In this document: one piece after another, positions 9,533-31,928 of the stretch
Numbering within the stretch: the first letter of the stretch is position 1
Layout: every line of letters starts with the position of its first letter
NCBI RefSeq assembly: GCF_000016745.1
Contig: NC_009483.1
Location: 900,001 to 932,000, forward strand
DNA from: Geotalea uraniireducens Rf4
GTDB lineage: Bacteria; Desulfobacterota; Desulfuromonadia; Geobacterales; Geobacteraceae
Direction: 5' to 3'
Length of the DNA stretch: 32,000 nt
Notes under the pieces: generated by a model
The model's database searches: none
What the model saw: only the letters and a program-made list of their open reading frames with translations
What the model was told of the DNA's origin: nothing
Made by a program: the position numbers and the translations under genes

Positions 9533-9555
9533 AAAACCATCCGGGAGAACAAACG

Positions 9556-10641: not shown

Positions 10642-10658
10642 GTTTATCTGAAATTGCG

Positions 10659-10687
10659 TTGACACTACCCGGCGACGGGTGTATTTT
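10659..10687 (+). promoter_or_regulatory. Candidate sigma70-type promoter of the STAND regulator gene
   Basis: TTGACA (10659-10664), a 17-nt spacer, then TATTTT (10682-10687), about 100 nt upstream of ATG 10785. Confidence 0.4.
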
Positions 10688-10784
10688 CCGTCCAGTCAAA
10701 AAAGCAAATTCCTATCCCTTTATCCCACATCCAGGCCCTCTGGAGAATCCGTTCAGGTTTAATGGCGAGAACAGAATCAACCCC

Positions 10785-13787: not shown

Positions 13788-13809
13788 AAAACTCACCTTT
13801 TTTAAAAAT

Positions 13810-13844
13810 CCCTATCCTATCCCTATCCTTTTCGATGTTAACTT
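13810..13844 (+). promoter_or_regulatory. Two CCCTATCCT direct repeats with 11-bp phasing plus a -10-like hexamer upstream of the 13903 gene (candidate activator site)
   Basis: CCCTATCCT at 13810-13818 and 13821-13829. TAACTT at 13839-13844, preceded by TG at 13836-13837, lies 9 nt downstream. An A/T-rich tract lies upstream at 13787-13809. Confidence 0.4.
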
Positions 13845-13902
13845 TCTTCCGCAAACCTCAATTCGGTCATTCCCGAAACGATTCCGGGAGAAAGGGTACT
13901 CA

Positions 13903-16900
13903 ATGAAAAAAAATCAGAAGAGAGTTTTCAGAAGATTGCAAAAGTTTTCGACCGGACAGCCCGCATATTTGCGGCTGCTGGTCTGGCCGATCATTGCGCT
14001 GACGCTTGTTTTCGGACAGGCGTTTATTGTATCACCGGCAATGGCCTTGGGGGGCAGTTATACCCCGGCCGTCAGCGCCGGCAACGTCAGCGCGGGCAGC
14101 GCCACCCTGACGTTGAAATTTACCGGGGATTCCTCCACGCTGACCGGGAATTTCACCCTTCTGGCGGGGAACGGCGCCAGTTGCGGCAGCAGCGCTCAAG
14201 TCATTGCAGGAACGGACAGCGCGGACAAAGCAATTGGCGTCGCCGGCAGCGTCGTACTTCGCTCAGGCTCCGTGCCGAATATGAGCGTCGCTACCGATTA
14301 CCCGTACACGGTGGGCAACCTCAGCGCCGCCACCTCCTATACCGCCTGTTTCACCTCCAGCCCAGGTTCTACGCCTGCTTCGGCCAGTTTTAGCACAACA
14401 GCCGCCACCCCCCAGGTAGGCGCCTTCATGGGCACGGCCAGCGACACCGCTTTTACAGGCATTGCTCTCCCTTCCGTCATGGCCATTGCCCCGGACGGCG
14501 CCCCTTACGTGGCCTTCGGGTATTTGACTTCGGGTGGTGTAGCACACAAAGCCACGGTGAAGCGCTTTAATAGCCAGACCAAAGCGTGGGAACCGGTCGG
14601 CGCCGCGGAATTCACCGTCGATGCGGCCAATAGTATCTCTCTGGCCTTTGCCCCGAACGGCGCCGCTTACCTGGCGTCTTCCGACGATAACACCACCAAC
14701 GGAACCAAGGTGATGAGCTTTAATGGCGCGACCAGTACGTGGGAAGCGGTCGGCGCTACGCCCGTCTCTGCCGGCAGCACCGGTTTTAACTCACTGGCCT
14801 TTGCCCCGGATGGCACCCCTTACGTGGCGCTCGTGGAATTTGCAAACGGCGGCCAAGCCAGTGGCTATGTCAAGGTAAAGCGCCTTAACGGTTCGACCTG
14901 GGAAGACGTCGGCGCCCTGCCCGCCGACTACGCCACATACAGCTCCCTGGCCTTTACCCCCAACGGCGGCCTTTACCTGGCGTACGTGAAGACTGCACAC
15001 TCAGGCGCGGACTGGGGCACCGCCACGGTGAAGTTCCTTGCGAACCCGGCGGATCCCGGCGCTACCTGGGCAGATATCAACAATGATCCATCCAGTTCCT
15101 ATATCTACGGCGTTAGCGGCCTCTCCCTGGCTATCGCCCCGAACGGCACACCCCATGTAGCTTTTATGGATGCCGACACACGCTATCCCATAGTGATGCG
15201 CTACCTGAACGGCGCCTGGATCAAGGTCTGGAACGGCAGCGCCAATATAACAGCCGGCAGGGCGGCCGGCATGGGCAACCTGGTCATTGCCCCGGACGGC
15301 ACGCCATATCTGGCGACCGCGGATGAAAACACAGATCGCTCACAAACGCCGCTATTCGGCTTTAACGGCACGGACTGGATTCCTTTCGGCAGCAACTCTA
15401 CCATCTATAATTGGGGCCAGACTGCTCAACCGACCGTGGCCATTGCTCCGAACGGCATACCGTATGTGTTGATTAATGATATTAACACTTTCAACCCCAT
15501 GATAATGAAGGCGAACACCGACCCCATTCTCGCCGGCGTCACTACCGGCGCGGCGAGCAACATCACCACCACCGGCGCCACCGTGGCCGGGACGGTAAAC
15601 ACCACCGACGGCGGAACCACCACGGTTAGCTTTGAATATGGCGCTGACACCAGGTACGGCAGTCACACTACCCCCGTTACCGGCCAGTCGGCCGGCGCGT
15701 CAGCTTCCGCCTCCATCACGGGGCTGTTCTGCGGCGCCACCTACCACTACCGGATCAAGGGAACAAGCAGCCGCGGCCCCGCCTACGGCAGCGACAATAC
15801 CTTTGCCACCTTGGACTGCCAGCCAGGCCCGGCGCTGACCACTCCGAGCGCCAGCAATATAACCGTGGGGGGGGGCGCCACCCTGCAGTTTCAGGCAAGC
15901 GCCGTCAGCACCGGGTATTACACCGTGATGGCGGGGGCCGATGTCACCTGCGGCACCGCCTTGCAAATCAGGGGAGGCAAGGACAGCAACGGCAACACCG
16001 CAGCCATTTCCGGCTCCATGGCGCTGCAAGCCAACACTCCCGCCAGCATACAGTTAAACAGCCTGACCAACGCCGCCTACACCGTCTGCTTTACCGCCGG
16101 CACCAGCAGCACGCTGGCAACCGTTGCCTCGTTCAACCTGCTGACCCGCCCGGATTTCAGCTGGCAGCCGCTCGGTACAGCCGGAGCTTTCAGCGGCGAT
16201 GCGTCATACATCAAACTCGCCATTTCACCAACGGACAACACCCCCTACGTGGTGTTTCAGAATAATGTTCCCGGTGACCCGGATAATGGCAAGGCTGTGG
16301 TGAAGAGCTACAACGGCACATCCTGGAGCACGGTCGGTTCCGGCGGTTTCTCCACCGGAGACGCCTCTTTCATCTCTATGGCCATTGACAGTAACGGTAA
16401 ACCTTATGTGGCGTATCAGGACAGTGGCAACAGCGGCAAAGCCACGGTGAAGTCTTACAATAATGGCACTTGGGGCGAAATCGGGGTTACCGGCGGATTT
16501 TCCTCAGGTTTGGCCCAATACATCTCCATGACCTTTGCGCCGATGGGCAACGTTCCCTATGTGGCATACGCCGACGGCAGCGGCAGCAATAATGGCTCAA
16601 TCACGATGCAAGAGAACACAACCGGCAGTTGGAGCGTAGATGGGACCGGGACCGCCATCTCCGCCGCGAACGCCTCCAGCATCTCCCTGGCCTCTGATTC
16701 ATATTCTCAACAATATGTCGCGTATATTGACGGAAGCGACCTTAACAATAAACAGGTGAAGGTCCGGTACTATTATAATGATCCTGCTTTTCCTCTTTGG
16801 GATAACTACCCGGCGGTCTCAAGCAATTCACTCACCGATCTCTCCAATCTCTCCCTGGCGGTTGCGTCAGACTGCACACTCTACGTGGCATATCTGGATG

Positions 16901-19317: not shown

Positions 19318-19472
19318 TGATAGAGTCAATCAAATTGGCATTAATTGGGGCGCGGGCATCTTGCCTGTGTTTCAAGCGGAGTTTGAATAGGCAGGCTGGA
19401 AGCCTACCCTCCCAAAGTGTCATCTTGAAAGCAAAACAGGATACGAATCCAAAGAAAATACGAGGAGATAAC

Positions 19473-20630
19473 ATGAAGATATTTGCAACCATAGCATCGT
19501 CGCTGCTGTTAATGCTTGTCATCACCGCCTGTGGCGGCGGTTCCAGTCCCACTCCCGTCGCCGCCAACACCACCGTCTCCGGCATCGCCTCCAAGGGCCC
19601 GATCGTCAACGGCGTAGTCAAGATATATTCGGTCATAGACGGCGCCAAAAGCACACTGCTCGCCCAGACCACCACCGACGCCAACGGCAACTACACCGCC
19701 AATCTCGGCAGCTACGTGGGTCCGATCATAGTCGAGGCGAGCGGTTCCTACCTGGACGAGGCCACCGGTACAACCAAGACCATTCCAGCGGATTCTCCCA
19801 TTCACGCCGCGCTCCCCTTGGCGCAGGGCGCGGTCAACCTGCCGGTAACGGCCCTCACCGAACTTGCCTACCTCAAGACCGACGCTGACCTGACCGCATC
19901 GGCAATCAGCGCAGCCAACACCCTGGTTTCCGATCTCTTCAAGGTAGACATCATCGCCACCTCGCCGGTAGTACCAACAGCCGCTGTCCTTGCCACCGCC
20001 ACCCAGGCCCAGAAAGACTACACCCTGGCCCTGGCAACCGTATCCCAACTGGCCAGTACCGCAACCGGTACCAGCGACACCGACAAACTGAACAATGCCC
20101 TGACGACAATAGGGCAGGGCATATCACCCACCGGCATGACCACCGCCACTGTTAGCGCCATCCAGAGCGCCCTGACTACCTTCGTCAGCAACCCCAACAA
20201 CCAGACCGGCGTCAGCGACACCGCAACTACCAGCCTGATAAACGTCGGCACCCTTACAAAGAGATATAAACTGAGTCTCCAGGGGACCTTCACCCCAGGC
20301 AGCGTTACCGGCCTTCAGTTCGATCTGACGCTTCCGGCGGGAGTCACCCTCAACGTCAACAGTTCCACCTCGGCCGTCCTCTCCAGCAGCCTGACCCTTT
20401 CGGGTGATGTGCATTCCGGTGCCCTGCTGGCGGCCAATTACTCGTCCGGCAGCCTGACCGTCGGCATTATCACCACAAACGGGTTCAGCACCGGCGAGGT
20501 AGCCACGTTGACCTGCAATGTCCCTGCTGGAGCGAGCGCGCCCAGCGCCTCCTCATTCTCCGTCGCCAACATCAGGAGCATCGACAAGAACGGCGCCACG
20601 GTGTCTGGAACCACGATCACCATCAAGTAA
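19473..20630 (+). CDS. Lipoprotein (385 aa): N-terminal beta-rich domain, Ala/Thr-rich helical middle, cohesin-like C-terminal domain
   Basis: RBS GAGGAG at 19462-19467. Signal peptide with lipobox VITAC followed by GGGSS. C-terminus LQFDLTLPAGVTL....GSLTVGIITTNGFSTGEVATLTCNVPAGASAPSASSFSV...D.NGATVSG..ITIK parallels the C-terminus of the 9556 lipoprotein. Confidence 0.8.
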   Translation: MKIFATIASSLLLMLVITACGGGSSPTPVAANTTVSGIASKGPIVNGVVKIYSVIDGAKSTLLAQTTTDANGNYTANLGSYVGPIIVEASGSYLDEATGTTKTIPADSPIHAALPLAQGAVNLPVTALTELAYLKTDADLTASAISAANTLVSDLFKVDIIATSPVVPTAAVLATATQAQKDYTLALATVSQLASTATGTSDTDKLNNALTTIGQGISPTGMTTATVSAIQSALTTFVSNPNNQTGVSDTATTSLINVGTLTKRYKLSLQGTFTPGSVTGLQFDLTLPAGVTLNVNSSTSAVLSSSLTLSGDVHSGALLAANYSSGSLTVGIITTNGFSTGEVATLTCNVPAGASAPSASSFSVANIRSIDKNGATVSGTTITIK

Positions 20631-21145: not shown

Positions 21146-21601
21146 ATGAGCAATTTGGGATGCGGCTGCCCCGGCAGCATGGCACGGGTAATCGAGAGAG
21201 AAGAGACAACAACTGCAACCACCTGCAGGGCGCAGTCAGAACTTCGGCAGTGGCCGGTGCAGCTCCACCTGGTCCCGCCGACCGCCCCGTATTTCAACCA
21301 GAGCGATATACTGATCTCGGCAGACTGCGTTGCCTTCGCCCTCGGGAGCTTCCACGGCGATCTGCTGCGAGGGAAGGCGCTGGCCATAGCCTGCCCGAAA
21401 CTGGACGATAGCGGCGTGTATGTGGAAAAACTGGCGACGATCTTCCGGGAAAACGAGGTGAAAAGCATAACCGTGGCGATCATGGAAGTCCCCTGCTGCC
21501 GCGGCCTGGATGTGATGGTCAGGCAGTCGCTCCAGCAGTCCGGCAAGGAGATCCCGCTTGAAACCGTCATCGTCGGGGTGAACGGCGAAAGGAGGAATTG
21601 A
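21146..21601 (+). CDS. Conserved Cys-rich protein, probable Fe-S/redox protein (function unknown)
   Basis: RBS AAGGAG at 21133-21138. Motifs GCGCPGS, LRQWPVQLHLVPP.APYF, ADCVAFA, ACPKLDD and MEVPCCRGL. From memory this family is often annotated as an iron-sulfur cluster-binding protein. Confidence 0.7.
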   Translation: MSNLGCGCPGSMARVIEREETTTATTCRAQSELRQWPVQLHLVPPTAPYFNQSDILISADCVAFALGSFHGDLLRGKALAIACPKLDDSGVYVEKLATIFRENEVKSITVAIMEVPCCRGLDVMVRQSLQQSGKEIPLETVIVGVNGERRN

Positions 21602-21603
21602 CC

Positions 21604-22161
21604 ATGAAAAGGGACATCACACAGACGCTCGTCCGCGAGCACCGGCTGATCCTCCGCATGCTGGCCGTTTTAGAGCGTAACGCTCTGGCCACCGGCGCAG
21701 GAACATACTCCAACTACCGCTTTTACCTGGACGGGGTCGATTTCATCAGAAATTATGCCGACCGCTTCCACCATGCCAAGGAAGAGGACGTGCTCTTCGA
21801 GGCGCTGGTGAAAAACGGCATGCCCAGGGAAAACAGCCCGGTGGCTGCCATGCTGATGGAACATGAGCAGGGGAGGGCCTACGTGAAGGCCATGGAACTG
21901 GCGGCGTTGCTTGCCCTGTCGGGTGAGCCGGGTCAGGATGGGACTATTGCGGAAAACGCCCTCGCTTACGTGGAGCTTTTGAAAGAGCATATCGCCAAGG
22001 AGGACGACATCCTCTATCCCTTGGCCGAGCGGCTCATACCCGATGCGGCTCGCGATGCCGTCATTGCCGGTTACGAGGCTGCCGAGGCCCGATCAACGGA
22101 CGGTTTTGAGAGAAGGTATGATAAGATTGTCGCTGATTATGAGCGTGAGGGGGCCTGTTAG
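21604..22161 (+). CDS. Hemerythrin HHE cation-binding domain protein
   Basis: RBS GGAGG at 21591-95, 8 nt before ATG 21604. Motifs [24 protein letters not shown] and [14 protein letters not shown]. The previous stop at 21599-21601 lies 2 nt before the ATG, so translational coupling is likely. Confidence 0.85.
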
Positions 22162-22577
22162 TGTAGTTCCTCTCCTGTCGTGGTCATCACCAGCTTCCCA
22201 TGTTTTACCCCTTTTACCCCGATCAGTTCATCGGCAATCTGCTTCACCTCACGGGCTTTGCCCCGCACAACCAGGACCTCCAGGCAGTTGTGGGCATCAA
22301 GGTGCACGTGAAGGGCAGAGATGATCTGGTCATGGTGAGTATGCTGATGCTCGGTCAGCTTGTCGGACAGGTCCCGCACGTGATGATTATAGACAAGGGT
22401 GACGGTGCCGACGGTCTCCTCTTCTCCCGCTTCCCATTTCAGTTCCACCAGCGATGCGCGGATCAGGTCCCGAATCGCCTCGGAGCGGTTCATGTACCCC
22501 TTCTGATCGATCAGCTTGTCGAAGCTCTCCAAAAGTGTCTCGTCGATTGATATGCCGAATCTAATGGTCTCTCCCAT
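22158..22577 (-). CDS. nikR: Nickel-responsive transcriptional regulator NikR
   Basis: N-terminal ribbon-helix-helix ([19 protein letters not shown]...[13 protein letters not shown]). C-terminal metal-binding domain with His/Cys ligand pattern (VYNHH...EHQHTHHD...HVHLD..NCLEV). RBS GAGGAG 6 nt before the ATG. Confidence 0.9.
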
Positions 22578-22596: not shown

Positions 22597-22628
22597 GAAT
22601 CATCAATTTGTCAAATATTAGATGATTC
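22597..22628. promoter_or_regulatory. Perfect 8-bp inverted repeat with 16-bp spacer just upstream of nikR (candidate NikR operator)
   Basis: GAATCATC (22597-22604), N16, GATGATTC (22621-22628), located 20-51 nt upstream of the nikR ATG. A TAATAT -10-like hexamer (minus strand) lies in the spacer. Confidence 0.45.
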
Positions 22629-22839
22629 GGGAGCAAAAACAAACATAAAATGTGTGAGGCACAAATCAGGACAGGTGCGGGATTGCCACTAACTCGACTA
22701 CAGCGGTTATCATCAACAGGTTCTGATATCGTTTCATGCCTACACCTCCTTTCCTGGCACAACATTCATCTCCTGCAATTCCCTGAGGTTGAAGCGGGCC
22801 AGGGAACTAAAGGAGCTTGACGTTCATCCATATCTGTGC

Positions 22840-23559
22840 CTACCGCAGTTGGAACTGTACCGGCATGACGATCTCTGCAGCCGCGGGTGGTCTCGGGAAG
22901 GGTGCAACGCTTTTGACCGTTTCCATGGCACTGTTATCCAGCGCAGGATAGCCACTGCTCTCTTTGACTTGAATAGAGCGGACGCTGCCGTCTTCAGCGA
23001 CTATGAACACAAGCACTACTCTGCCGCTCCACCCCATCCGTCTGGCTACCAGAGGATAAGAGAGCCGTTTTACGATCAGGTCGCGGATATAAGTAAAATG
23101 CTCATTGAGATATCTTTGCTGGGCCTTTTCAGGAGTCATCCCGCCACCACTTGTCTGTGCTGTCCGTGGCGCAGCAGCGACAACTGGTATCCCCTGGTTT
23201 GTGGAAACCTGCCTGGACACATTTTCCGTTACAGTTCTGCTAGCCAGAGGTGCAGATGGTGTCGGTGCTGCATTCTGGCTGACAACCGGGGTCGGCTGAG
23301 ACTCCGGTTGTGTCTGCGCCTGCTTTCGTGGTGTCGGCTGCGCTGCGACAGCCGGCAGCTTTTGGGGGGCAATCGGCTGTTTGGGAGCGGCAACCGGCGG
23401 CGTTGATTTTCCCCGGAGCTGCTCAGGACGCGGAGATGAGCCGAGGGTAAAATCAATGCTGACCGGCGGGGTGTGCTTGACTCTGTTTACAGTAAATTCC
23501 AGCATCAGTGCCAGCATCCCCAGATGCACGGCGAGAGAGGCCATACACCATTTAGCCAT
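22840..23559 (-). CDS. tonB: Energy transducer TonB
   Basis: N-terminal TM with SxxxH motif (MAKWCMASLAVHLGMLALML), a Pro/Gln/Ala-rich spacer, and a TonB C-terminal domain (YPLVARRMGWSGRVVLVFIVAEDGSV..IQVKESSGYPALDNSAMETVK...PFP). AAGGAG lies upstream. An alternative start is at 23595. The ORF-track start at 23850 overlaps the upstream gene. Confidence 0.85.
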   Translation of the reverse strand: MAKWCMASLAVHLGMLALMLEFTVNRVKHTPPVSIDFTLGSSPRPEQLRGKSTPPVAAPKQPIAPQKLPAVAAQPTPRKQAQTQPESQPTPVVSQNAAPTPSAPLASRTVTENVSRQVSTNQGIPVVAAAPRTAQTSGGGMTPEKAQQRYLNEHFTYIRDLIVKRLSYPLVARRMGWSGRVVLVFIVAEDGSVRSIQVKESSGYPALDNSAMETVKSVAPFPRPPAAAEIVMPVQFQLR

Positions 23560-23611
23560 ATGTGCATCACTCCTTGCTGTCTGTAGACGGGGCATACAAT
23601 AGGTTCTCCGA

Positions 23612-26600
23612 TCATCTGTTTTTCCGGAAACCTGTTGCCACCAGCCCCAGCACGACAATAAATCCCAGTATGAACAACCAGGGGATCGGGGCCGATGCCG
23701 CGCCGGCCGCCGGTTTACCGCTTTCCTGCATTTCAAACCCTTCAACCTGTTTGCCCTGCGTCGCTTTGCCGCTCGTCCCTTGGGTTGCGGCCTGCTGCGC
23801 AGACTTCTGCGCCGCCTGCTGCCGTCCCTGTTTGCCGTTCTTCCCGGCATCGGGCTGTTTCATGTTCTGTAGCGCTTGCTCGAAACCGGAAACCAGCGAT
23901 TTCAGCCCCGGCACCGATAACAGGGTTGTGGTTGTGAACTTCGTCAACTGCGGGTTGTTGCAGGTATGGTCGCAACAGGCAAGACCGACCTCTTGAACCG
24001 ATTTGGCGTATTCCTCGGCCAGTTTCTCGACTATTTTCTGATCCGGCTTCCAGTACTGCTTGCGCACTGTCTCCAGCATACGTGCGACGACAGACTGGTA
24101 GGCCCACATATTCTTGGCCTGGCGGAACATGTCCTTGATTCCCAGACCGTTTCTGTCAAGCACATATGTTTCATGCATCTCCTGCCACTTGGCGCTGTCC
24201 ACCGTCTCCGGCACCGTCACCTGCCATCCCCAAAGATGTTCCGTCACCTTGTCGATGAAGCGCGCTCCGGCGTACCCATCCTTCATCATGGCCTTGATCC
24301 ACTCCGGATTGAGATAGCGGGAACGCATCTCCTGCCCCATCACTTTCTCCAATGTTTCCTGTTTTGCCTTGTTCGGATTGGTCATGTCGGTGACGTAAAC
24401 CTCGGGAGTCGCGCCGTTCACGGCGCGGACCGCCATGGCGGTGCCCCCCAGATACTGGTAGAAGTCGTCCGTATCCAGTATGCCGATGGTGTTGGTGGAA
24501 CGGCTGTGGATTGCAATCTTGCTGCCGGTGAGGGCGTTTTTGAACAGCGCCGTGCCGATCTCCTGCCCCTTATGTTCCACCTTTTCGCCCCAGAAACCTT
24601 GGCCAAAGGGATGACCCATGCGCATGAAATAGACGTCTACCACCTGTTTTTCGTTATCCCACTTGTCGGAAGCAACGATCACCTTGTCTAAGCCGGTGCC
24701 GTACGTGCCGGGTGGTTCGGTAAATATGCGCACCGATGCCAGCCGACCGGCCTTTTCCTCCGCCATACCTTTATCGAGTAATATCTGCTTGGTACGTCTG
24801 GTATTGGATCTGATCAGGTTATCTTCTTCATCCTGATCACGTGCAACCGTCACCGCGCTGTCCAAGAGCGCCATCAGGTTGGCGAACAGGTCGCGGTACA
24901 GGCCGGAAGGAACGATGGTGACGTCAATCCGGCCACGCCCCAGCTCTTGCCTCGGAATCGGCTCGACCCCCTTGACCCGTCCCCGCTCGTCCCACTGGGG
25001 GCGTACCCCCATCAGATACATGATCTGTGACTCCATCACCCCTTCATGACGGATGGTTTCAGTAGCCCAGATATTGAAGGTCAGTTTGTCGGGGTATGCT
25101 TCATGGCGCTTTTTGTACCCCTCGATCAGCTCCTGGGCCAGTTTTGTTCCGGTCGCATAGGTGCCCGGAGAGGGGACACGGGTCGGATCAAACGCATAGA
25201 AGTTCTTGCCGGTGGGGAGTGAGTCCGGATTGCGAATCGGATCGTTGCCGGTGCCGGACGGGATGTATTTCCCCGCCAGGGCGGCCACAAAAGAATCGAG
25301 TTCACGGGGGCCGCTGGCGGCGATTGCCGCTTCCAGGGCGGCGATACGCTTCTGACGTTCTTCAGATTTCAGACTTTTCTCAATGGCGATAATCGCCTCG
25401 GCGGTGCTTTTCAGATACTTCCCATCCGGCGATTTGCCGAAAGTATGCAGCCCAAAGGGGGTAATCTTCTCGCCGATCTCCCTGATGTAGTCGTCCAGTT
25501 CCTCCACCTGTTCCATAGTGGTGATGGCCGACAGTTTCAGGTCCGTCAGGATGCCCCCCTTGCGGGCCAGCCGGTTGATCTCCTCCAGCTTGCTGCCCGC
25601 CAGTTGGGGTGACTTCTCTTTGGCATCGTTGTAATCGCTGATCAGCGCCGCCAGCTCCTTCAATTCGCGGTTGATACCGGCCTTGTCAAAGGGGGGAGTC
25701 ATATAATCAATCACCACCGCCATGCCGCGCCGCTTGGCCTGGAGCCCTTCGCCCACATCATCCACGATGTAGGGGTAGATATTGGGAAGGTCCTGAATCA
25801 GCAGTTCCGGCGGATCTTCCTGTGTGAAGCCGACCTCTTTGCCGGTGAGCCATTCCTGGGTGCCATGGGTGCCGATATGGGCCACGGCGTCGGCCTTGAA
25901 GCCGCGTTTCAGCCAGAGATGAAAGGCGATATACTGGTGATGGGGCGGAGTGTGGATATCATGAAAGAGCTTTTTGACATCCTGTTCCAATCCGCGCGAC
26001 GGCTCCGGTGTGAACAGAATGTTGCCGTATTTGACCCCCGGCAGCACGATAAACTTTTTCCCGTTCGGGTCGCGCCAGGTCATGATGGCGGCGTCATCCG
26101 GCTCGCCCCAGCTTTTCACCACATCCTTGCGGAAGTTTTTCGGCAGCTCCATGAACCAGCTTTTGTAAACCGCCATCGGGATCAACACCGCCCGGCCGCT
26201 GCGGGCCAACCTGTCAATCTCCGCCGGAGCCCAGTTGCCGATATTGCGCCCAAAGGCATGCACCTCTTCAAACAGCTTCTCTTTGGAGATCTCTTCGTTT
26301 CCTGTGGTATAGCCTTCGCGTTTCAACCTGCTGAATATCTCAAAGAGGCTTTCCGGCAGCACATTCAGGTAGGCAGCACCGATATTCTGTTTCCCCGGCG
26401 GGTAGTTGTAGTAGATGATGCCGATATTCTTGTCGCTGTTCGGTTTCTGTTGCAGCGTCAGCCAGCGTTTAACCCGTTCAGTCAGCCGTTCGATCCGCTC
26501 CGGGATAGGGCGGGTCTCCATGTATTCCAGTCCGGTGGCGGGGTCAACGCCCCGCTCTTTCGAGGAGACCACCGTCGGCTGAATGATACCGGCCATTTCC

Positions 26601-27583
26601 GGCAGTCCGATGGTTGAGCTGCGCTCGAAGATGTCCAGCCCGACCGGGGATTTTTCCCACTCTTCCCGTGACTGGGAGTGCAGGGTAACGGCATCGATCA
26701 CCGGCACACCAAGGCGGGTCAGAATCGGCACCGCCCGCTGTGGTGTGATGCCGACTTTGAGCGATACGCCGATCACCGCCTGCACTCTGCTTTTTCCGGT
26801 TTCGTCAAAAAAATACTTTTCCACCGACAGTTCCGAGGGGTAGCCGTAGACCGGCAGGACATTCATTCCCTTGCGTTCCAGCGAAGCGATCAGGCTGTCG
26901 AGCAGCGCGGTGTCGTCGTTATCCACCAGGTTCCGGTAAAAAGGGATGCCGATCCAGGGGCCGGGGCGGTGGCGATACAGCTTCAGGTAGTCGGCAAATG
27001 TTTCAACGGTACGCTTGCCATCTTTGAGATATAAGCCGAAAGCGGGAACTCCCTGAGGTTCTTGATACTCAACCGCGATGCCGCACTCCCGTTTCAGCAG
27101 CGAGAGGATCATGTTAACAGCATTTTCCAACCCTCCCTCTTGTTGATAACGGCTAACGATGGAGTCGTTTTTCAGGCCGAGGGCGCTGTCGTCCTTGCTG
27201 AACATCCCACCCACGGCATACACATTCATCCCGGCCTGCTGCATGGTGAGGATGGATGGCTTCAGCAATTCGAGAAAACGTCGATCCATGATATGGACAA
27301 TGCCGAAACCTTTTGATCCGGCGGGATAGTGTGCCTTTGCTCCGTTTTCGCGCTCAAGCCCCGCCTTGGTAACCACCTCAAACGTTACCTGGTGTGCTAG
27401 TTCCGGATGTTTCAACGTGATGGCGTGAACCGCCTGTACCGCCAGACGGGAGTTGTAATCGCCAAGCATCAGCCTAACCGTGAGCGGCGTTTCCGCAGCC
27501 AGGGCGGCAAGAGGAAGCGCCAGTAGCAGAACTATTGCCGAAGCAGCTTTCAGGATCGTGGCAAACAGGCTATTCCGGCACAT
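23612..27583 (-). CDS. CobN/Mg-chelatase large-subunit family protein with N-terminal signal peptide and C-terminal membrane anchor (HmuS-like)
   Basis: 1323 aa. Contains the CobN-type motif AHIGTHGTQEWLTGKEVG and is family-like along its length. N-terminus MCRNSLFATILKAASAIVLLLALPLAALA-AE looks like a Sec signal. C-terminus has a Q/K/A-rich linker followed by IPWLFILGFIVVLGLVATGFRKNR. It overlaps the upstream gene by 14 nt. Confidence 0.85.
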   Translation of the reverse strand: MCRNSLFATILKAASAIVLLLALPLAALAAETPLTVRLMLGDYNSRLAVQAVHAITLKHPELAHQVTFEVVTKAGLERENGAKAHYPAGSKGFGIVHIMDRRFLELLKPSILTMQQAGMNVYAVGGMFSKDDSALGLKNDSIVSRYQQEGGLENAVNMILSLLKRECGIAVEYQEPQGVPAFGLYLKDGKRTVETFADYLKLYRHRPGPWIGIPFYRNLVDNDDTALLDSLIASLERKGMNVLPVYGYPSELSVEKYFFDETGKSRVQAVIGVSLKVGITPQRAVPILTRLGVPVIDAVTLHSQSREEWEKSPVGLDIFERSSTIGLPEMAGIIQPTVVSSKERGVDPATGLEYMETRPIPERIERLTERVKRWLTLQQKPNSDKNIGIIYYNYPPGKQNIGAAYLNVLPESLFEIFSRLKREGYTTGNEEISKEKLFEEVHAFGRNIGNWAPAEIDRLARSGRAVLIPMAVYKSWFMELPKNFRKDVVKSWGEPDDAAIMTWRDPNGKKFIVLPGVKYGNILFTPEPSRGLEQDVKKLFHDIHTPPHHQYIAFHLWLKRGFKADAVAHIGTHGTQEWLTGKEVGFTQEDPPELLIQDLPNIYPYIVDDVGEGLQAKRRGMAVVIDYMTPPFDKAGINRELKELAALISDYNDAKEKSPQLAGSKLEEINRLARKGGILTDLKLSAITTMEQVEELDDYIREIGEKITPFGLHTFGKSPDGKYLKSTAEAIIAIEKSLKSEERQKRIAALEAAIAASGPRELDSFVAALAGKYIPSGTGNDPIRNPDSLPTGKNFYAFDPTRVPSPGTYATGTKLAQELIEGYKKRHEAYPDKLTFNIWATETIRHEGVMESQIMYLMGVRPQWDERGRVKGVEPIPRQELGRGRIDVTIVPSGLYRDLFANLMALLDSAVTVARDQDEEDNLIRSNTRRTKQILLDKGMAEEKAGRLASVRIFTEPPGTYGTGLDKVIVASDKWDNEKQVVDVYFMRMGHPFGQGFWGEKVEHKGQEIGTALFKNALTGSKIAIHSRSTNTIGILDTDDFYQYLGGTAMAVRAVNGATPEVYVTDMTNPNKAKQETLEKVMGQEMRSRYLNPEWIKAMMKDGYAGARFIDKVTEHLWGWQVTVPETVDSAKWQEMHETYVLDRNGLGIKDMFRQAKNMWAYQSVVARMLETVRKQYWKPDQKIVEKLAEEYAKSVQEVGLACCDHTCNNPQLTKFTTTTLLSVPGLKSLVSGFEQALQNMKQPDAGKNGKQGRQQAAQKSAQQAATQGTSGKATQGKQVEGFEMQESGKPAAGAASAPIPWLFILGFIVVLGLVATGFRKNR

Positions 27584-27908
27584 AGATCACCTTCCCGTCT
27601 TTCAGTTGATACGCAGTGCCCAGCCGTTCCCCTTCGCCGGAAAGCCGCTTGTCCGCCACCTTGCGCACCTTGATCTCTTTGCCCTTCTTGGTGATGACCT
27701 CGATTCCACCGTTGGCGGTCTTTTTGGTGATGGTTACCTCCGATTTCGGGTCCATCAGGTCGAGCATGTTGTAGGCCATGAACAGGGCGATCATCATGCT
27801 GACGATAAAGACCACGCTGACGTCGAACAGGTTGGCCACTCCGGCGATTGGATCTTCCAGCGGCTCATCATATTTTTCAAAGCGGTTGCGCCGTTTAAGA
27901 AATCTCAT
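27570..27908 (-). CDS. Small single-pass membrane protein, DUF2149-like (ExbD-like topology)
   Basis: 112 aa: a short charged N-terminus, TM LFDVSVVFIVSMMIALFMAY, then a ~60-aa soluble beta-rich tail. It overlaps both neighbours by 14 nt. The family name is from memory. Confidence 0.7.
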   Translation of the reverse strand: MRFLKRRNRFEKYDEPLEDPIAGVANLFDVSVVFIVSMMIALFMAYNMLDLMDPKSEVTITKKTANGGIEVITKKGKEIKVRKVADKRLSGEGERLGTAYQLKDGKVIYVPE

Positions 27909-28491
27909 CGCCTTCTTCCTCCCTGGCCGACAGTGGGCGACTGCTGGTATATCTCCTGAGCATCAACTCGGTCTGGTATTCCATTTCTCGCATGTCGGCC
28001 CGCACCCATTTTTCCTTCACCAGCGACATCAGGTAGGCTACGACGCTACAGGCCAGACCGACGACAACGGTGGTAAAGGCGGTCACCATACTTCCGGCCA
28101 TCTTGGGCATATCCCCCTGCGCCAGCGAAGAGAGGGATATCCCCATCGGAATCAGGGTTCCCATCAAACCAAGAGCTGGACCGACCCGGATCACGAAGCG
28201 GATCTTGTCCAGGGATTTGACCAGGGCCAGCTCGGCCGTTTGCAGGAGACGCTCCATGGCGATATCCAGATTGGACTTCTCAGGTGCGTCCGCCAGTGCT
28301 GCGGTCAAGCGTGCCCGGTAGCGTTCCAGCGGGGTGGATACCCCCTGTCGCCGTTCCAGCCACTCCCGCAGAAATCCGCCAATGAAGATGGTGACCCATC
28401 CAACCAAAAGCACCAGCCCGGCAACCACCGGAAACAGCAGAACCGACGAAATCAGATACAGGACGGTTTCAAGACCAGCCAATATGTTCAT
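27895..28491 (-). CDS. MotA/TolQ/ExbB proton-channel family protein
   Basis: 198 aa with three TM segments and signature VGPALGLMGTLIPMG...AFTTVVVGLACSVVAY. ATGA start/stop overlap with the upstream gene. Confidence 0.85.
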   Translation of the reverse strand: MNILAGLETVLYLISSVLLFPVVAGLVLLVGWVTIFIGGFLREWLERRQGVSTPLERYRARLTAALADAPEKSNLDIAMERLLQTAELALVKSLDKIRFVIRVGPALGLMGTLIPMGISLSSLAQGDMPKMAGSMVTAFTTVVVGLACSVVAYLMSLVKEKWVRADMREMEYQTELMLRRYTSSRPLSAREEEGDEIS

Positions 28492-29183
28492 TTGTTACCT
28501 CCTTTGTGTGTAAAAAAGCCGACCAACAACGCTGTCAGCAGCAGCCCCAACAGAAACATGCCGCCTGTGCCGTTTCCGGCAACAGGCGGCAGCTCCTTGA
28601 GAAATGAGCTGTACATCCCTTTGGCCTGCTCAACTTTGGTCGGCAGAAAGAGGGAGGCGATGAAATAAAGTCCGATCGTGATCATGACCAGCCCCAGGGA
28701 GGGGAGTGAACGGCGATTAGATCCGGTTCTGGAGACAATCATCACCACCAGCGTCATGCTGCTGAAAACCCCGCCCAGCACCAAGCCAACCGCCCAGGGG
28801 AGCAGCGGGAGGCTGTTGAGGGCGCTCCAGGTCGAGAAGGTCATGGCGGTCAGGCAGACCGGGCAGGGGATCAACAGTGCCAAGGGAGAATCGTGAGGGG
28901 ATGTTCCCCCCTGTCTCTTGATGATAAAAAGCCCCCAGAGGATCATGCCCATGGCCATAACCATGTGCAGCCAGCGCCCTCCTTTCAGCAGAGGTTCAAG
29001 CAGCGGCAACAGGCGCTCGGCCAGGAGGGCGATCAGCTCAAAGAGCGCCAGATAGAGGCCGATGGTGAACGCTACCCCTTTTCGGGAAACCTGCCCGTAT
29101 CCCAAGCCAGCGCCGACCTTGACGGCAAAGATTCCCAGACTGAAGAGGGTGCCGCCGACCCAGAGCGCTATATTCAGATCCAT
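28488..29183 (-). CDS. Polytopic (6-7 TM) membrane protein, DUF2162-like predicted transporter
   Basis: 231 aa and highly hydrophobic, with LLIPCPVCLTAM (CPxC within a TM) and a His (SPHDSP) loop. The family name is recalled from memory of CobN/MotA/DUF2149 neighbourhoods and was not verified. Confidence 0.65.
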   Translation of the reverse strand: MDLNIALWVGGTLFSLGIFAVKVGAGLGYGQVSRKGVAFTIGLYLALFELIALLAERLLPLLEPLLKGGRWLHMVMAMGMILWGLFIIKRQGGTSPHDSPLALLIPCPVCLTAMTFSTWSALNSLPLLPWAVGLVLGGVFSSMTLVVMIVSRTGSNRRSLPSLGLVMITIGLYFIASLFLPTKVEQAKGMYSSFLKELPPVAGNGTGGMFLLGLLLTALLVGFFTHKGGNK

Positions 29184-29196: not shown

Positions 29197-31425
29197 TCAG
29201 AATTTGAAACTCAACTCGCCGTATGCTGAGCGTCCCGGCGCCAGATAGTATGAGTAGTAGTGTTCATCAAGCAGATTGGAGACGGATAGTGAAGCAGTAG
29301 CCCATGAAGTGATCCTGTAGCGCAGTTTCAGGTCAACGGTGAAATAGGGGTCGTAACTCCCCTGAACGCCGTTGACCGTATCGATGTTGGTGTCGTTGCC
29401 ATAGCGCTTGCCCACATAGCGACCGGTGGCCAACGCTCCGAAGTCGCCGTATTCCAAATCGGCGCCGACATTGAACATATGTTCCGGTACATCGGTCATC
29501 CGTTTGCCGGTAGAGGCGGGGGCTGCGCTGTTTTCCTTGATGGTGGCATCGGAATAGGTGTAGTTGGCAAACAGTCTGAGCTGCTTGCCGAATTTCTGTT
29601 CCGCCTCCAGCTCCACCCCTTTGCTTTCCGCCTTGCCGGCGTTGACCTTGTCCTTCCAGGTTGCCGTGGTTGATGTACTGTAGATCAGGTCGCTGATGTA
29701 GTTTTCAAAATAGGTGGCCGAAACCCTGGCTCCCTCCCAGAGACCCTGGCTGACACCGGCATCCCAAGAGATGGTTGTTTCCGGCTTCAGATCAGGATTT
29801 CCGGCATAGGTTATTCCGCTGGAAGTCGTCCAGGTGCGGTAGAGATCATATGCGGTGGGAGCGCGGAACGCCTTGCCGCCGGAGAGTTTGAGGGTGGTCT
29901 GGTCGAACGGTTTATACACGATGGCCCCTTTGGGGCTAAAGGAAGAGGCGCTGCGGGAATCATAATTTTTGGGATAGCCACTGCTTCCAACCTGATTGGC
30001 GTAGCCGTCAAAGGTTTCCCACCAGTCCTGCCGGAAGCCGAAGAATAGGGTCAGTTTGTCCAGCAGCATGATCTCGTCCTGGGCGAACAGGGCGAAGGTC
30101 CGGTCGGTTCCCTTGGATTTGTAGGTCATGGCCGCTGTAGAATTTTCATCCTGCCAGTTGGTGAGGGTATGCTCCTTGGAATGGGCCCAACCGCTACGGA
30201 AGGCGCCGCCGAAGGTCAGAAGGTGGCGATCCAGCAGCGGCAGGGATGCCTGAAGATCGGCGTTGATCGCCCCGGCCGGGGTATCGGACAGTTTGCCCGG
30301 GCCACCGCTTCGGGTGGCGCTGTTGGGTGGAGCTGCCGAGGTGGGGGTGGAGCCCCAACTGCTGGCCTGATACAGATAGCCGAGGTTCAGTTTAAGTTTG
30401 ACCGGAGAAAATGCTGTTTCGGCGGCCAGGCCGTACAGATACTGGTCGCTGCCACCGTTTGCTCCCAGGAAGGAGGCTTCCCGTACCGTGCCGTAGGTCC
30501 AGACCTCGGCACCGGAGCTGTTGCGCAGATAGGTTGCCGGGTCATCATAGAAATATTCACCGCTTGACTTCAGGAAGGTGAACCTGACTCTGGTGTCCGG
30601 AGAAAACTCGTATTCTGTCTTGACAGTAAGGTTGTCCTGCCAGGTGCCGTTTTTACCCTTGTCGCCGATCCGGTAGCGGGCTGCTCCGCTGTAGTCGGTA
30701 GTGTTACTGTAGCCGGTTATTCCGGCGGTCGGCTGGCTGCTCTGGACGTTGAAGTCGCTGCGGTAGCCGTTCGTGCCTACATAGTCGTTATGCAGATAGA
30801 CCTTAAATTTCCCCAGAAACTTGTCGCCGTAGGAAACCGCCACGCGGCGGGAGTTCTCCATACCGTTGCCGCTGTCTAGGGCAGAACCATAGCCACCGGT
30901 AAGGGTAAATTCCCGTTTTTCCGGCATCTGGGTAATCAGATTAACCACACCTCCCATGGCATAACCGCCGTAGAGGCTGGAGGCCGGTCCCTTGACCACC
31001 TCGATCTGTTCGAGACTGCCCGGTGCTATCCCCACAGAGAATACCGATCCTGCATAGGGGCTGTTGAGGGTGATGTCGTCCAGCATCACCAGTGTGCGGG
31101 ACTGCCCCGGAATACCCCGCAGGGTAATGGCCGACATCCGGTCCATCATCCCTTTGCCGCGGGTCGTAATCACACCGGGTATGATGTTGATCGCCTCATC
31201 CACCGTGGTAATATTCCGCTTATCTATCTCCTCCTTTGTTACAACGGAGACACTGCCGGGGGCGGACTCCAGATCTTGCTCGGTCCTGGTGGCTGTGACC
31301 ACGATCTGCTCCAGCCTGGTTTCGCTTCCTGCCGCGTTGCCTGGCGGTTCCGCCCCGATGGCGGCGCTCCCCAGCAGGCAGCCCGACAAAATCCCTGCCA
31401 ACGTTACGACTTTTTTTCTCTTCAT
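29197..31425 (-). CDS. TonB-dependent outer-membrane receptor (riboswitch-controlled; BtuB/HmuR-like role)
   Basis: Signal peptide MKRKKVVTLAGILSGCLLGSAAIGA. TonB box LEQIVVTATR. Plug motifs (PGVITTRGKG, IRG) and a beta-barrel ending ...YGELSFKF. RBS GGGAGA at 31436-31431. Confidence 0.9.
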   Translation of the reverse strand: MKRKKVVTLAGILSGCLLGSAAIGAEPPGNAAGSETRLEQIVVTATRTEQDLESAPGSVSVVTKEEIDKRNITTVDEAINIIPGVITTRGKGMMDRMSAITLRGIPGQSRTLVMLDDITLNSPYAGSVFSVGIAPGSLEQIEVVKGPASSLYGGYAMGGVVNLITQMPEKREFTLTGGYGSALDSGNGMENSRRVAVSYGDKFLGKFKVYLHNDYVGTNGYRSDFNVQSSQPTAGITGYSNTTDYSGAARYRIGDKGKNGTWQDNLTVKTEYEFSPDTRVRFTFLKSSGEYFYDDPATYLRNSSGAEVWTYGTVREASFLGANGGSDQYLYGLAAETAFSPVKLKLNLGYLYQASSWGSTPTSAAPPNSATRSGGPGKLSDTPAGAINADLQASLPLLDRHLLTFGGAFRSGWAHSKEHTLTNWQDENSTAAMTYKSKGTDRTFALFAQDEIMLLDKLTLFFGFRQDWWETFDGYANQVGSSGYPKNYDSRSASSFSPKGAIVYKPFDQTTLKLSGGKAFRAPTAYDLYRTWTTSSGITYAGNPDLKPETTISWDAGVSQGLWEGARVSATYFENYISDLIYSTSTTATWKDKVNAGKAESKGVELEAEQKFGKQLRLFANYTYSDATIKENSAAPASTGKRMTDVPEHMFNVGADLEYGDFGALATGRYVGKRYGNDTNIDTVNGVQGSYDPYFTVDLKLRYRITSWATASLSVSNLLDEHYYSYYLAPGRSAYGELSFKF

Positions 31426-31449
31426 GATTTTCTCCCGCGAGTATTTCGG

Positions 31450-31600
31450 CTGGAGCGGTATTCCGGCTCAGGGCTTCCTACTTGCCCGCCTTCCCAGGAT
31501 TTTTCCCAGTGGCTGTTTCGCCTTGCGGCGATGGGCTTTCGTTCCCATTACGGCTGCGGGGCAGCGGGGGAGTTGCACCCCTCTTCCTCGACTCCATCCG
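31450..31600 (-). promoter_or_regulatory. Cobalamin riboswitch, proximal copy (B), abutting the receptor RBS
   Basis: The minus-strand RNA contains AGGAAGAGGGGUGCAACUCCCC, CCCGCAGCCGUAAUGGG, GCCACUGGGAAAAAUCCUGGGAAGGCG (GCCACUG from 31513) and the B12-box variant GAGCCGGAAUACCGCUCC (31469-31452). The RBS lies 16 nt further on. Confidence 0.8.
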
Positions 31601-31614
31601 TTTGAAAAAGGCAC

Positions 31615-31650
31615 AAAAAAAGTCCGCATATGCCGAAGCAATATGCGGAC
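31615..31650 (-). terminator. Intrinsic terminator between the two riboswitches (expression platform of copy A)
   Basis: The minus strand reads GUCCGCAUAUUGC-UUCG-GCAUAUGCGGAC: a 12-bp stem with one bulge and a UUCG tetraloop, followed by U7 (31621-31615). Confidence 0.85.
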
Positions 31651-31717
31651 TTTTCGTATTCAAAGTCTGATAATGGTTTCACTCTCCCTTTACCACGGGG
31701 AATTGTTGAGTGCTAAG

Positions 31718-31888
31718 ATCATGGCAGGTCTTCTGGCTCGCGATTCATCCTCCGGGCGCCTTCCCGGTCTTTCGACCAGTGACATAATGCCCTTCGTCCT
31801 CGCTTACAGCGGCGGGTCCGCGGGGGAATGGCTCGGTTTGAGCGGCACCCCTCTTCCCTATCAAGCCCTTGCGGGCACCGTGATCCGA
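31718..31888 (-). promoter_or_regulatory. Cobalamin riboswitch, distal copy (A)
   Basis: The minus-strand RNA contains GGUGCCCGCAAGGGCUUGAUAGGGAAGAGGGGUGCC, CCCGCCGCUGUAAGCG, GUCACUGGUCGAAAGACCGGGAAGGCG and the B12 box GAGCCAGAAGACCUGCC (31739-31723). Confidence 0.9.
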
Positions 31889-31928
31889 TATTCAGTTTTT
31901 GTTGATATTTACTAAATATTGCATGATC

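Follow-up and report, generated by a model that had tools for sequence, protein, structure and literature searches.

In Bacteroidota, an exported and membrane-anchored layout of CobN-like proteins has already been published for HmuS and BtuS: it was predicted in 2018, a structure appeared in 2025 and a test in E. coli followed in 2026 (PMC6460266, PMC12583661, PMC13227078). The terminal helices of this layout are absent from the cytoplasmic proteins CobN and ChlH (PMC13227078). When expressed without its N- and C-terminal helices, HmuS strips heme of its iron with NADH, needing no ATP (PMC12583661); the soluble protein performs only 1-2 turnovers, and membranes stimulate it (PMC12583661, PMC13227078). 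Its partners HmuU and HmuV have been described as ExbB/ExbD-like, and Hmu-like operons that lack HmuY and have a cobalamin riboswitch in front have been guessed to handle cobalamin (PMC10100974). The BtuS family of Rodionov et al. (2003), as cited in PMC6460266, is a third, B12-regulated type of CobN relative, for which metalloporphyrin salvage was proposed. Finally, a cluster in Geobacter was described in 2012, export not being mentioned (PMC3403914). Here, we analyse a CobN-like gene of Geotalea uraniireducens Rf4 and the operon to which it belongs. The gene lies on the minus strand at exactly 23612..27583 of a stretch of 32,000 nucleotides (contig NC_009483.1, positions 900,001 to 932,000), which is called the window in what follows.

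The product of this gene, 1323 amino acids long, belongs to the exported Hmu/BtuS type and can be equated neither with HmuS nor with canonical CobN. It serves as the enzyme in an uptake system that depends on TonB and is repressed by B12, and this system is the proteobacterial counterpart of the Hmu/BtuS systems of Bacteroidota. Its membership of the Hmu/BtuS-type systems is held with high confidence. As to function, we propose an HmuS-like periplasmic enzyme that would release Co2+ from an imported cobalt tetrapyrrole or other cobalt chelate, an explanation to which we give, as a whole, a probability of roughly 0.5. That the system supplies cobalt or corrinoid rather than heme iron seems probable, while cobalt extraction as the actual chemistry is a tentative assignment that falls somewhat short of even odds.

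The exact sequence of the protein is recorded as ABQ24982.1 / WP_011937706.1 / UniProt A5GBR2 of Geotalea (Geobacter) uraniireducens Rf4, with the database name "cobaltochelatase subunit CobN". The gene is very probably Gura_0774, which PMC3403914 names as a homolog of Glov_3671, a protein treated there as a CobN of unclear function. Pfam model PF02514 (CobN-Mg_chel) is matched over its full length (E=0; 1040 bits, cut-off 24.5). The ATG is the first possible start after the in-frame stop, has a Shine-Dalgarno sequence (GGAAGGTGA) 4-11 nucleotides upstream, and overlaps the stop codon of the upstream DUF2149 gene (ATGTGCCGGAATAG). This overlap is kept in many related loci, it explains why many homologs begin with MCRN, and it suggests translational coupling of the two genes. 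The next methionine of the frame, M39, is situated within the first conserved block of the mature protein. An internal start, which an earlier note on this DNA had named as a way in which the hydrophobic N-terminus might disappear, is excluded by the missing alternative upstream, the Shine-Dalgarno sequence, the DUF2149 overlap and the position of M39; the annotated start is sound. The gene and the segments that bear on the location of its product are as follows.

23612..27583, minus strand: CobN-like class I chelatase homolog, 1323 amino acids (Pfam PF02514, E=0)
27497..27583, minus strand: predicted signal peptide, residues 1-29, with R3 and K12 in the n-region, a 17-residue h-region and ALA followed by AE; entropy 2.74 bits
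23735..23863, minus strand: low-complexity Q/K/A/G linker, residues 1241-1283, from domain VI to the anchor; 2.46 bits, of variable length among homologs
23630..23695, minus strand: C-terminal anchor, residues 1297-1318, SAPIPWLFxxGFxxxxGLxxxG, conserved
23615..23629, minus strand: basic tail FRKNR, predicted to be cytoplasmic from the sequence and the homolog alignment

From the sequence, the earlier note had claimed a Sec signal peptide with an AxA site, a Q/K/A-rich linker and a C-terminal hydrophobic helix with a basic tail, together tethering a periplasmic body to the inner membrane. All these elements are present. The N-terminal segment, MCRNSLFATILKAASAIVLLLALPLAALA followed by AE, has its h-region in 109 of the 111 homologs with an intact N-terminus; the linker spans residues ~1241-1283; and the helix with its tail, IPWLFILGFIVVLGLVATGFRKNR, has a counterpart of the helix in nearly all of 120 homologs. 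This set, at 57-91% identity, comprises Geobacteraceae, other Desulfobacterota, Nitrospirota, anammox Planctomycetota and Desantisbacteria. In a scan of the Kyte-Doolittle mean with 19-residue windows, only residues 10-28 (2.33) and 1298-1316 (2.40) exceed the membrane-helix threshold, the third best value being 1.29, and none of 2000 shuffled sequences had both termini hydrophobic. The tethered periplasmic body is supported by these two mutually consistent and widely conserved terminal signals. What did not stand is the term "tail-anchored": the anchoring is indeed C-terminal, but cleavage of a signal peptide leaves a type I topology and not a classical tail-anchored protein.

An exact A-x-A occurs in 69/111 homologs, at a fixed distance of 7 residues before the first conserved block in 54 of those 69, and most of the others carry VSA, AWA or ATS at the same place. 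The h-region is as variable as the linker (2.74 and 2.46 bits) while its hydrophobicity is kept, and for this reason the segment looks like a signal peptide. The anchor, with an entropy of 1.16 bits versus 0.97 for the body, is nearly as constrained as the body itself; P1301 and G1318 never vary, and S1297, A1298, I1300, F1304, G1307, F1308 and L1314 hardly do. Even in relatives at 29-37% identity (Gamma-, Alpha- and Betaproteobacteria, Bacteroidota and Planctomycetes), among them Woeseiaceae, Alteromonadaceae, Runella, Azospirillum, two Comamonadaceae and Blastopirellula, the N-terminus carries a signal or an anchor, and Arg or Lys comes after a C-terminal helix. The charges, with R3 and K12 before the N-terminal helix, an acidic residue after it, and RKNR after the C-terminal helix, point to an N-out/C-in orientation with the body outside. 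Furthermore, Cys1203, Cys1204 and Cys1208, invariant in 72 of 73 sequences, are located in a C-terminal extension that has no counterpart in cytoplasmic CobN. The C-x4-C pair looks like a disulfide, the mark of an extracytoplasmic protein, because it is lost pairwise in two distant relatives, B. finegoldii HmuS and the Blastopirellula protein. Every gene that neighbours the CobN-like gene encodes an envelope protein. We therefore place, with very high confidence, a body of ~1270 residues in the periplasm, connected by a flexible linker to a single C-terminal helix in the inner membrane and a cytoplasmic basic tail.

The best solved relative of this body is HmuS of B. thetaiotaomicron (PDB 9D26, E 2e-149), and CobN and ChlH score similarly. 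The histidine of the superfamily motif HxG(T/A/K)HG is H573 (HIGTHG), and the glutamate of (D/N)xGEG is E612 (DVGEG). In CobN, a site made up of H554, E593 and D1100 holds two Co2+ (bioRxiv 10.64898/2026.07.21.739949), and these residues align to H573, E612 and D1039. E612 and D1039 are invariant in 73 sequences, and GTHG with H573 is kept in all relatives aligned. The LDSDDYYQ of CobN aligns to LDTDDFYQ; the motif LDTDDFYQYLGG is of the CobN type and not of the HmuS type, and the region around GTHG scores best against CobN. CobN of the CobNST complex (9UK9, 7C6O) has in common with the window protein the fold family, the H/E/D of the Co2+ site and LDxDD[FY][FY]Q. CobN, however, is cytoplasmic and has no terminal helices, and its domain VI is gripped by CobT of the CobS/CobT AAA+ motor (bioRxiv 10.64898/2026.07.21.739949), whereas domain VI of the window protein runs into the Cys extension, the linker and the membrane helix, and its partners are membrane proteins. 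The protein also scores below the cut-off of every NCBIfam equivalog model for CobN and BchH (for CobN, NF004645 with 916 vs 1619 and TIGR02257 with 630 vs 822; NCBIfam/TIGRFAM). A conserved signal peptide and a conserved C-terminal helix are predicted where CobN is a cytoplasmic protein. No genes similar to cobS or cobT are found in the 32-kb window, and the genome of Trichlorobacter lovleyi has neither (PMC3403914).

With HmuS (B. thetaiotaomicron 9D26/9P4S; P. gingivalis), the protein shares the superfamily, the six-domain body, the export, the terminal helices and the absence of an AAA+ partner. The GTHG histidine and the VGEG glutamate are conserved between them, and both are encoded together with a TonB-dependent receptor, a MotA/ExbB-like protein (HmuU) and a DUF2149 protein (HmuV). 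The differences concern the features by which PMC12583661 defines HmuS, and these were checked against PDB alignments and B. finegoldii HmuS. In place of His-254 of HGR, a ligand of heme site 1, no histidine occurs in the aligned LKVGITP (KVGI), while the control, B. finegoldii HmuS, has HGR at 254. LSLDHxxEFMGG is replaced by ILDTDDFYQYLGG, His-1209 becoming Asp and Glu-1212 becoming Gln. The Met-rich insertion is absent as well: residues ~698-890 of HmuS have no counterpart, and the Met-rich part, 839-890, aligns to nothing. In the region of the heme ligand Met-79, the head domains have diverged too far for a dependable alignment (E 0.049 for the N-terminal third; the MAFFT alignment is ambiguous). 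Nor is a complete hmuYRSTUV operon seen in the window: equivalents of R, U and V are present in another gene order, HmuY is missing, and the place of HmuT is taken by DUF2162. An identity of HmuT and DUF2162 was considered and rejected, the two having no similarity (BLASTP E 0.4). Finally, HmuS is under iron control and the window operon has B12 riboswitches, and the host of the latter makes its own heme and B12.

The protein does have what characterizes the HmuS/BtuS-type exported CobN-like proteins, namely an export signal or anchor together with a C-terminal helix, and adjacent genes for a MotA/ExbB-family protein and DUF2149. It fits the description of BtuS (B. fragilis BtuS1 and BtuS2), as far as this is relayed by PMC6460266, as predicted periplasmic, membrane-anchored and proposed to act in metalloporphyrin salvage; that family was, however, defined mainly on Bacteroidota, and BtuS2 is now regarded as an HmuS. 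Since the definition of 2003 is taken from that paper, membership of the BtuS family rests on a secondary citation. Among the exported relatives, which for this comparison include the proteins of Azospirillum (L035), Comamonadaceae (L036/L037), Blastopirellula (L032) and Gammaproteobacteria (L027/L028/L030), at least two types of active site recur. The LDxDD[FY][FY] type is found in the riboswitch (cobalt) clade, the Runella nickel cluster and Woeseiaceae, and the LSxDH type in HmuS and Azospirillum, while Blastopirellula belongs to neither (LSNKYVWYHGG). At L030, a Fur-family regulator and a YceI-like protein are encoded upstream.

The genes of the window operon are all on one strand, in the order riboswitch 1, terminator, riboswitch 2, receptor, DUF2162, MotA-like, DUF2149, CobN-like and TonB, after which follows nikR:

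31706..31897, minus strand: cobalamin riboswitch aptamer 1, operon leader (Rfam RF00174, 109.9 bits, E 6e-27)
31614..31654, minus strand: intrinsic terminator after aptamer 1, an inverted repeat with a perfect stem of 12-13 bp and a T7 run
31437..31611, minus strand: cobalamin riboswitch aptamer 2 (Rfam RF00174, 68.5 bits, E 4e-15)
29197..31425, minus strand: TonB-dependent outer-membrane receptor, 742 amino acids, with signal peptide (Pfam Plug, TonB_dep_Rec_b-barrel)
28488..29183, minus strand: DUF2162 polytopic inner-membrane protein, 231 amino acids (Pfam PF09930, E 4e-62)
27895..28491, minus strand: MotA/TolQ/ExbB-family proton-channel protein, 198 amino acids, the HmuU equivalent (Pfam PF01618, E 4e-12)
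27570..27908, minus strand: DUF2149 protein, 112 amino acids, the HmuV equivalent (Pfam PF09919, E 3e-32)
22840..23595, minus strand: TonB, about 251 amino acids (Pfam TonB_C), with the start as called in locus L001; the true start may be 23559
22158..22577, minus strand: nickel-responsive regulator NikR (NCBIfam NF003381, 240 bits vs a cut-off of 105), downstream after a gap of 262 nucleotides

By its two tandem cobalamin riboswitches, the operon is predicted to be repressed by B12. Two RF00174 matches lie directly upstream of the receptor gene, in line with the B12-element control and the btuB-like receptor of BtuS operons; cobalamin riboswitches also precede the operon in 11 related loci, namely L003, L004, L006, L011, L016, L018, L021, L025, L033, L039 and L040. 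The terminator was read directly from the sequence, a pattern scan having missed it (its loop is 9 nucleotides), and it is likely to form a transcriptional expression platform. Aptamer 2 probably acts through a translational platform, since it ends 12 nucleotides before the ATG of the receptor, beside the ribosome-binding site. The two tandem aptamers thus differ in their apparent expression platform; tandem pairs also occur in L003, L004, L018, L021, L033 and L040.

The receptor is below every specific NCBIfam cut-off (heme 216 bits, B12 189 bits), its best NCBIfam match, likewise below cut-off, being the heme/hemoglobin receptor subfamily. DUF2162 is a candidate metal permease. Its PCPVC motif (residues 106-110), in a predicted helix, is invariant in 51/51 sequences; its AlphaFold2 model has a pLDDT of 76.8, and the matches of this model in a Foldseek search of the PDB were no better than E 0.2, with TM <0.45, CcdA, VIT1 and ZIP appearing only as noise. 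The MotA-like protein has a conserved GPALGLxGTLIPxG. DUF2149 consists of one transmembrane helix, with a conserved acidic residue in ANLFD, and a small beta domain (AlphaFold2 model), and it is 82-96% identical across loci whose CobN-like proteins are 57-90% identical. TonB is 47% identical to the TonB of the T. lovleyi operon. Its mechanically called open reading frame (22840-23850, minus strand, 336 amino acids) overlaps the 3' end of the CobN-like gene, and 23595 or 23559, the latter with AAGGAG upstream, is the probable start. The link of nikR with the operon is uncertain: it follows the CobN-like gene in two loci, the window and L009. A perfect palindrome, GAATCATC-N16-GATGATTC (22597-22636), 20-60 nucleotides upstream of nikR, could be an auto-operator of NikR; it differs from the GTATGA-N16-TCATAC of E. 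coli. A search for NikR operators of the E. coli type and with a deltaproteobacterial consensus yielded chance-level matches only, and no NikR-like palindrome was found upstream of the receptor gene.

The association of these genes is not confined to Geotalea. In a scan of related genomes, in which CobN-like loci of this kind were found in bacteria only, the genes for the MotA-like protein and DUF2149 adjoin the CobN-like gene in 26/26 loci with enough flank, and in the PLSDB a CobN-like gene stands beside DUF2149 in all 10 plasmid records that contain DUF2149. This three-gene core extends across six phyla. A divergent DUF2149 representative proved to be HmuV of Bacteroides. In Azospirillum the three genes overlap, and on a Comamonadaceae plasmid they occur alone, no gene for a receptor or TonB being close by. 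Which protein the third membrane gene encodes differs between loci: DUF2162, HmuT (in Bacteroides, unrelated to DUF2162) or a NicO/UreH-like permease (in Runella). Two of the copies carry odd labels. L002 (JBAYZR010000136.1) is 90% identical to the Geobacteraceae operon yet was deposited as a metagenome-assembled genome of "Pedobacter sp.", and the copy in L022, labelled Marinifilum, resembles that of Nitrospirota; faulty binning is a more probable cause than gene transfer.

A direct ortholog is Glov_3671 on plasmid pSZ77 of T. lovleyi, 75% identical, with the same order receptor-DUF2162-MotA-DUF2149-CobN and tandem riboswitches, between B12-synthesis genes and cbiMNQO. It differs from the window in having canonical exbB-exbD between the CobN-like gene and tonB, and a second receptor, both of which the window lacks. 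By BLASTP, the MotA-like/DUF2149 pair and the canonical ExbB-ExbD are distinct paralog pairs, and, given the presence of the latter, the former is not simply the energizer of TonB. In L040, whose protein is 77% identical, anaerobic B12 genes including that of the class II chelatase CbiK come just downstream of the operon, and the CobN-like protein is therefore not the biosynthetic chelatase. A plasmid of Runella slithyformis (L034) encodes a receptor, the MotA-like protein, DUF2149 and the exported CobN-like protein at 3890-11924, with hypA, hypB and hypF on one side, hypC, hypD, hypE and a [NiFe] hydrogenase on the other, and no riboswitch. Its permease, with the NiCoT-type signature HAFEADH, occupies the slot of DUF2162, and the cluster looks like a nickel-supply version of the system. 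Finally, CbiZ-family amidohydrolases (PF01955, E about 1e-52), each with a clear signal peptide, are encoded inside the operons of L005, L016, L021 and L039, whose hosts are an anammox genome, an uncultured bacterium, and metagenome-assembled genomes of Desulfuromonadaceae and Trichlorobacter. Canonical CbiZ is cytoplasmic, and no description of a periplasmic CbiZ was found in the literature. These homologs of adenosylcobinamide amidohydrolase in the sister operons, and a partial copy, have the following positions:

7142-7996 of L005: CbiZ-like
2970-3809 of L016: CbiZ-like
13066-14025 of L021: CbiZ-like
7308-8177 of L039: CbiZ-like
6654-6779 of L017 (Caldimicrobium): partial CbiZ-like copy

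On this basis it is possible to sketch how the system might work. When B12 is scarce, the receptor would import a cobalt tetrapyrrole, such as a corrinoid or a breakdown product of one, or another cobalt chelate, which in some lineages would be trimmed by the exported CbiZ. The CobN-like body would bind the compound at H573/E612/D1039 and free Co2+ without ATP, and DUF2162 would move the ion into the cytoplasm via its intramembrane CPVC site for de novo B12 synthesis. In this scheme, the substrate and the reaction's direction are inferred, as are the part played by DUF2162 and any energy coupling; periplasmic location and ATP-independent dechelation were demonstrated for relatives (HmuS) only and would apply here by analogy. 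That the ion rather than the macrocycle crosses the inner membrane is favoured by the variable, metal-matched third gene, by the nickel context in Runella, and by the methanogen M. marburgensis, which produces CobN1 and NikR1 solely when nickel is limiting (PMC12350162). The earlier note had also pointed out that chelatases of this type depend on ATP, which the periplasm lacks. For chelation this argument holds, but it is no paradox, as HmuS dechelates without ATP (PMC12583661); dechelation runs downhill and so sidesteps it.

Several observations weigh against this scheme. No enzyme is known to take cobalt out of a corrin, which would be a demanding piece of chemistry. With the receptor below the specific NCBIfam cut-offs, its substrate is not assignable to B12, heme or metal. 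DUF2162 has no recognizable transporter fold (AlphaFold2 model, Foldseek against the PDB), and its CPVC could be either a soft-metal site or a redox-active pair as in CcdA/DsbD. No CbiZ is encoded in the window operon, and the adjacency of nikR, seen in only two loci, may be coincidental. Cleavage at ALA followed by AE is a rule-based prediction. The experimental support comes by analogy, from relatives outside the proteobacterial/Nitrospirota clade. Moreover, the hmu operon of P. gingivalis is linked to a cobalamin riboswitch. Some Hmu-like operons of Bacteroides are linked to one as well (PMC10100974), so that a riboswitch alone does not exclude heme.

With regard to the energy source, it can be imagined, although we doubt it more than we believe it, that a motor driven by the proton-motive force has replaced the cytoplasmic AAA+ motor (CobST or ChlID) in exported CobN-like chelatases or dechelatases. 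The MotA/ExbB-like protein and DUF2149 would form a stator that engages the conserved C-terminal helix, as ExbBD engages TonB. Force would then travel via the flexible linker to domain VI and drive the periplasmic extraction of metal from corrinoids, nickel chelates or heme, and the choice of the metal taken in would lie with the third membrane gene (DUF2162, NiCoT-like permease or HmuT). Such coupling is suggested by the persistence of the core without a receptor or TonB nearby and beside canonical ExbBD, and by the anchor helix, which is constrained in sequence and emerges from domain VI. As in the ExbB-ExbD-TonB and MotAB systems, a MotA/ExbB-family protein is paired with a small single-pass partner that has a conserved acidic residue in its helix (ANLFD). 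The MotA-like protein is, however, only weakly similar to the canonical ExbB of the same T. lovleyi operon (E 2e-4). The pair is also set apart by coexisting with canonical ExbB-ExbD in T. lovleyi and by occurring without receptor and TonB nearby on the Comamonadaceae plasmid. In an hhalign comparison of DUF2149 with ExbD (that of T. lovleyi and an approximate E. coli sequence), only the helix was aligned, Asp on Asp, with a probability <5%. No match to ExbD, TolR or MotB was obtained with the DUF2149 model in Foldseek, and none to the co-resident T. lovleyi ExbD by BLASTP. Methanogens have no outer membrane. In these organisms DUF2149 has been linked to TolQ-like genes (PMC9425974), and both this link and the turnover and membrane stimulation of HmuS are consistent, by analogy, with coupling to the proton-motive force.

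The same genes might serve the passage of an intact compound instead of its demetallation. The body would then be a periplasmic corrinoid receptor that only binds the ring, as CobN binds hydrogenobyrinic acid a,c-diamide, and hands the intact or CbiZ-trimmed corrinoid to a translocon of DUF2162 and the MotA-like/DUF2149 pair; the system would stand in for BtuFCD, without any removal of metal. B12 transport is typically under riboswitch control, no btuFCD genes are found in the examined operons, and CbiZ normally serves corrinoid salvage, in which its product is re-used. The head/neck interface of HmuS holds tetrapyrrole, and the authors of the CobN study propose a delivery role there (bioRxiv 10.64898/2026.07.21.739949). 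A pure binding protein, however, could dispense with an invariant full catalytic triad and DxDD, and DUF2162, with 231 residues and a CPVC of soft-metal type, offers no obvious conduit for a cargo of >1 kDa. In Runella, where the surroundings point to nickel and give no reason to expect a corrinoid, the partner of the core is an ion permease, and the export of the CbiZ-like proteins implies that processing precedes inner-membrane passage; we consider such a hand-off unlikely. If, on the other hand, the receptor imported free or loosely complexed Co2+ or Ni2+, the CobN-like protein could be a metal chaperone that captures the ion and feeds the permease. The two Co2+ held by the conserved site of CobN (bioRxiv 10.64898/2026.07.21.739949) would suit this role, as would the link to nikR, the nickel permease and hyp genes of Runella, and the induction of a methanogen CobN homolog by nickel limitation. 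Yet a six-domain body of 1270 residues, conserved throughout (mean entropy 0.97 bits), goes far beyond the needs of a chaperone, the exported CbiZ partners indicate an organic cobalt compound, and the characterized relative HmuS acts on a tetrapyrrole, so that capture of the ion alone appears rather improbable.

A true HmuS ortholog, which would release iron or protoporphyrin from imported heme, is what the best PDB match would suggest, together with the shared receptor, MotA-like and DUF2149 partners and the below-cut-off match of the receptor to the heme/hemoglobin subfamily. Geobacteraceae nevertheless synthesize their own heme, and three of the defining features (HGR-254, LSLDHxxEFMGG and the Met-rich insertion) are missing, as is HmuY. 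DUF2162 is unrelated to HmuT, control is by B12 and not by iron, and operons of relatives adjoin B12-synthesis genes; orthology to HmuS is quite improbable. Two further possibilities would change the location of the protein rather than its substrate. The SAPIPW motif with its helix and RK tail resembles the layout of PEP-CTERM-type signals, from which cleavage by an exosortase, a rhombosortase or a similar enzyme, followed by release or attachment elsewhere, might be deduced. But no NCBIfam model matches the last 45 residues or the whole protein at E<=1, and none of ~40 loci encodes a sorting enzyme. The conservation of the whole helix (G1307, F1308, L1314, G1318) suggests helix packing, relatives from Bacteroidota and Gamma-, Alpha- and Betaproteobacteria keep the helix without the motif, and HmuS fractionates with the inner membrane, all of which makes a sorting signal very improbable. 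That the protein is an ordinary cytoplasmic CobN, its hydrophobic ends being due to an annotation artefact or to chance, has the database name in its favour; with a well-supported start codon, termini that are conserved across phyla and reproduced in 0/2000 shuffles, scores below all CobN equivalog cut-offs, neighbours that all encode envelope proteins, and no CobS/CobT in the window or in the T. lovleyi genome (PMC3403914), this is hardly credible.

The remainder of the window is occupied by other genes. On the plus strand at 21146-22161, convergent with nikR, are encoded a Cys-rich AF_0155-family protein and a protein with a hemerythrin domain; in Azospirillum (L035), a hemerythrin gene is located ~5 kb from the CobN-like gene, beyond unrelated genes. 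Unrelated large proteins are encoded on the plus strand at 1363-4938, 5101-9435, 10659-13787, 13636-19317 and 19311-20630. They include a pentapeptide-repeat protein of 1191 residues, two MBG-domain surface proteins of 1444 and 1893 residues, the longer of which contains Glucodextran_B domains and ends in a dockerin-like C-terminus, a TPR protein of the MalT-like kind and a lipoprotein-like open reading frame rich in Thr and Ala.

The exported and anchored layout of the window protein is a known architecture that has been rediscovered here in a mis-annotated member with a CobN-type active site and B12 control. The practical value lies in correcting the name "cobaltochelatase subunit CobN", which wrongly implies B12 synthesis of the aerobic type and which misleads in Geobacteraceae, Nitrospirota, anammox bacteria and others. 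Beyond the name, the interest rests mainly on the exported CbiZ, the nickel-cluster variant and the conserved three-gene core. The exported CbiZ-like proteins of the sister operons and the core within a nickel/hydrogenase cluster provide entry points that can be tested in cultivable Geobacter and Trichlorobacter. The clade bears on the role of the Hmu-like operons with B12 riboswitches that were noted in 2003, 2012 and 2023, on whether environmental tetrapyrroles or chelates can be relieved of cobalt or nickel in the bacterial periplasm, and on how a class I chelatase fold is powered without ATP.

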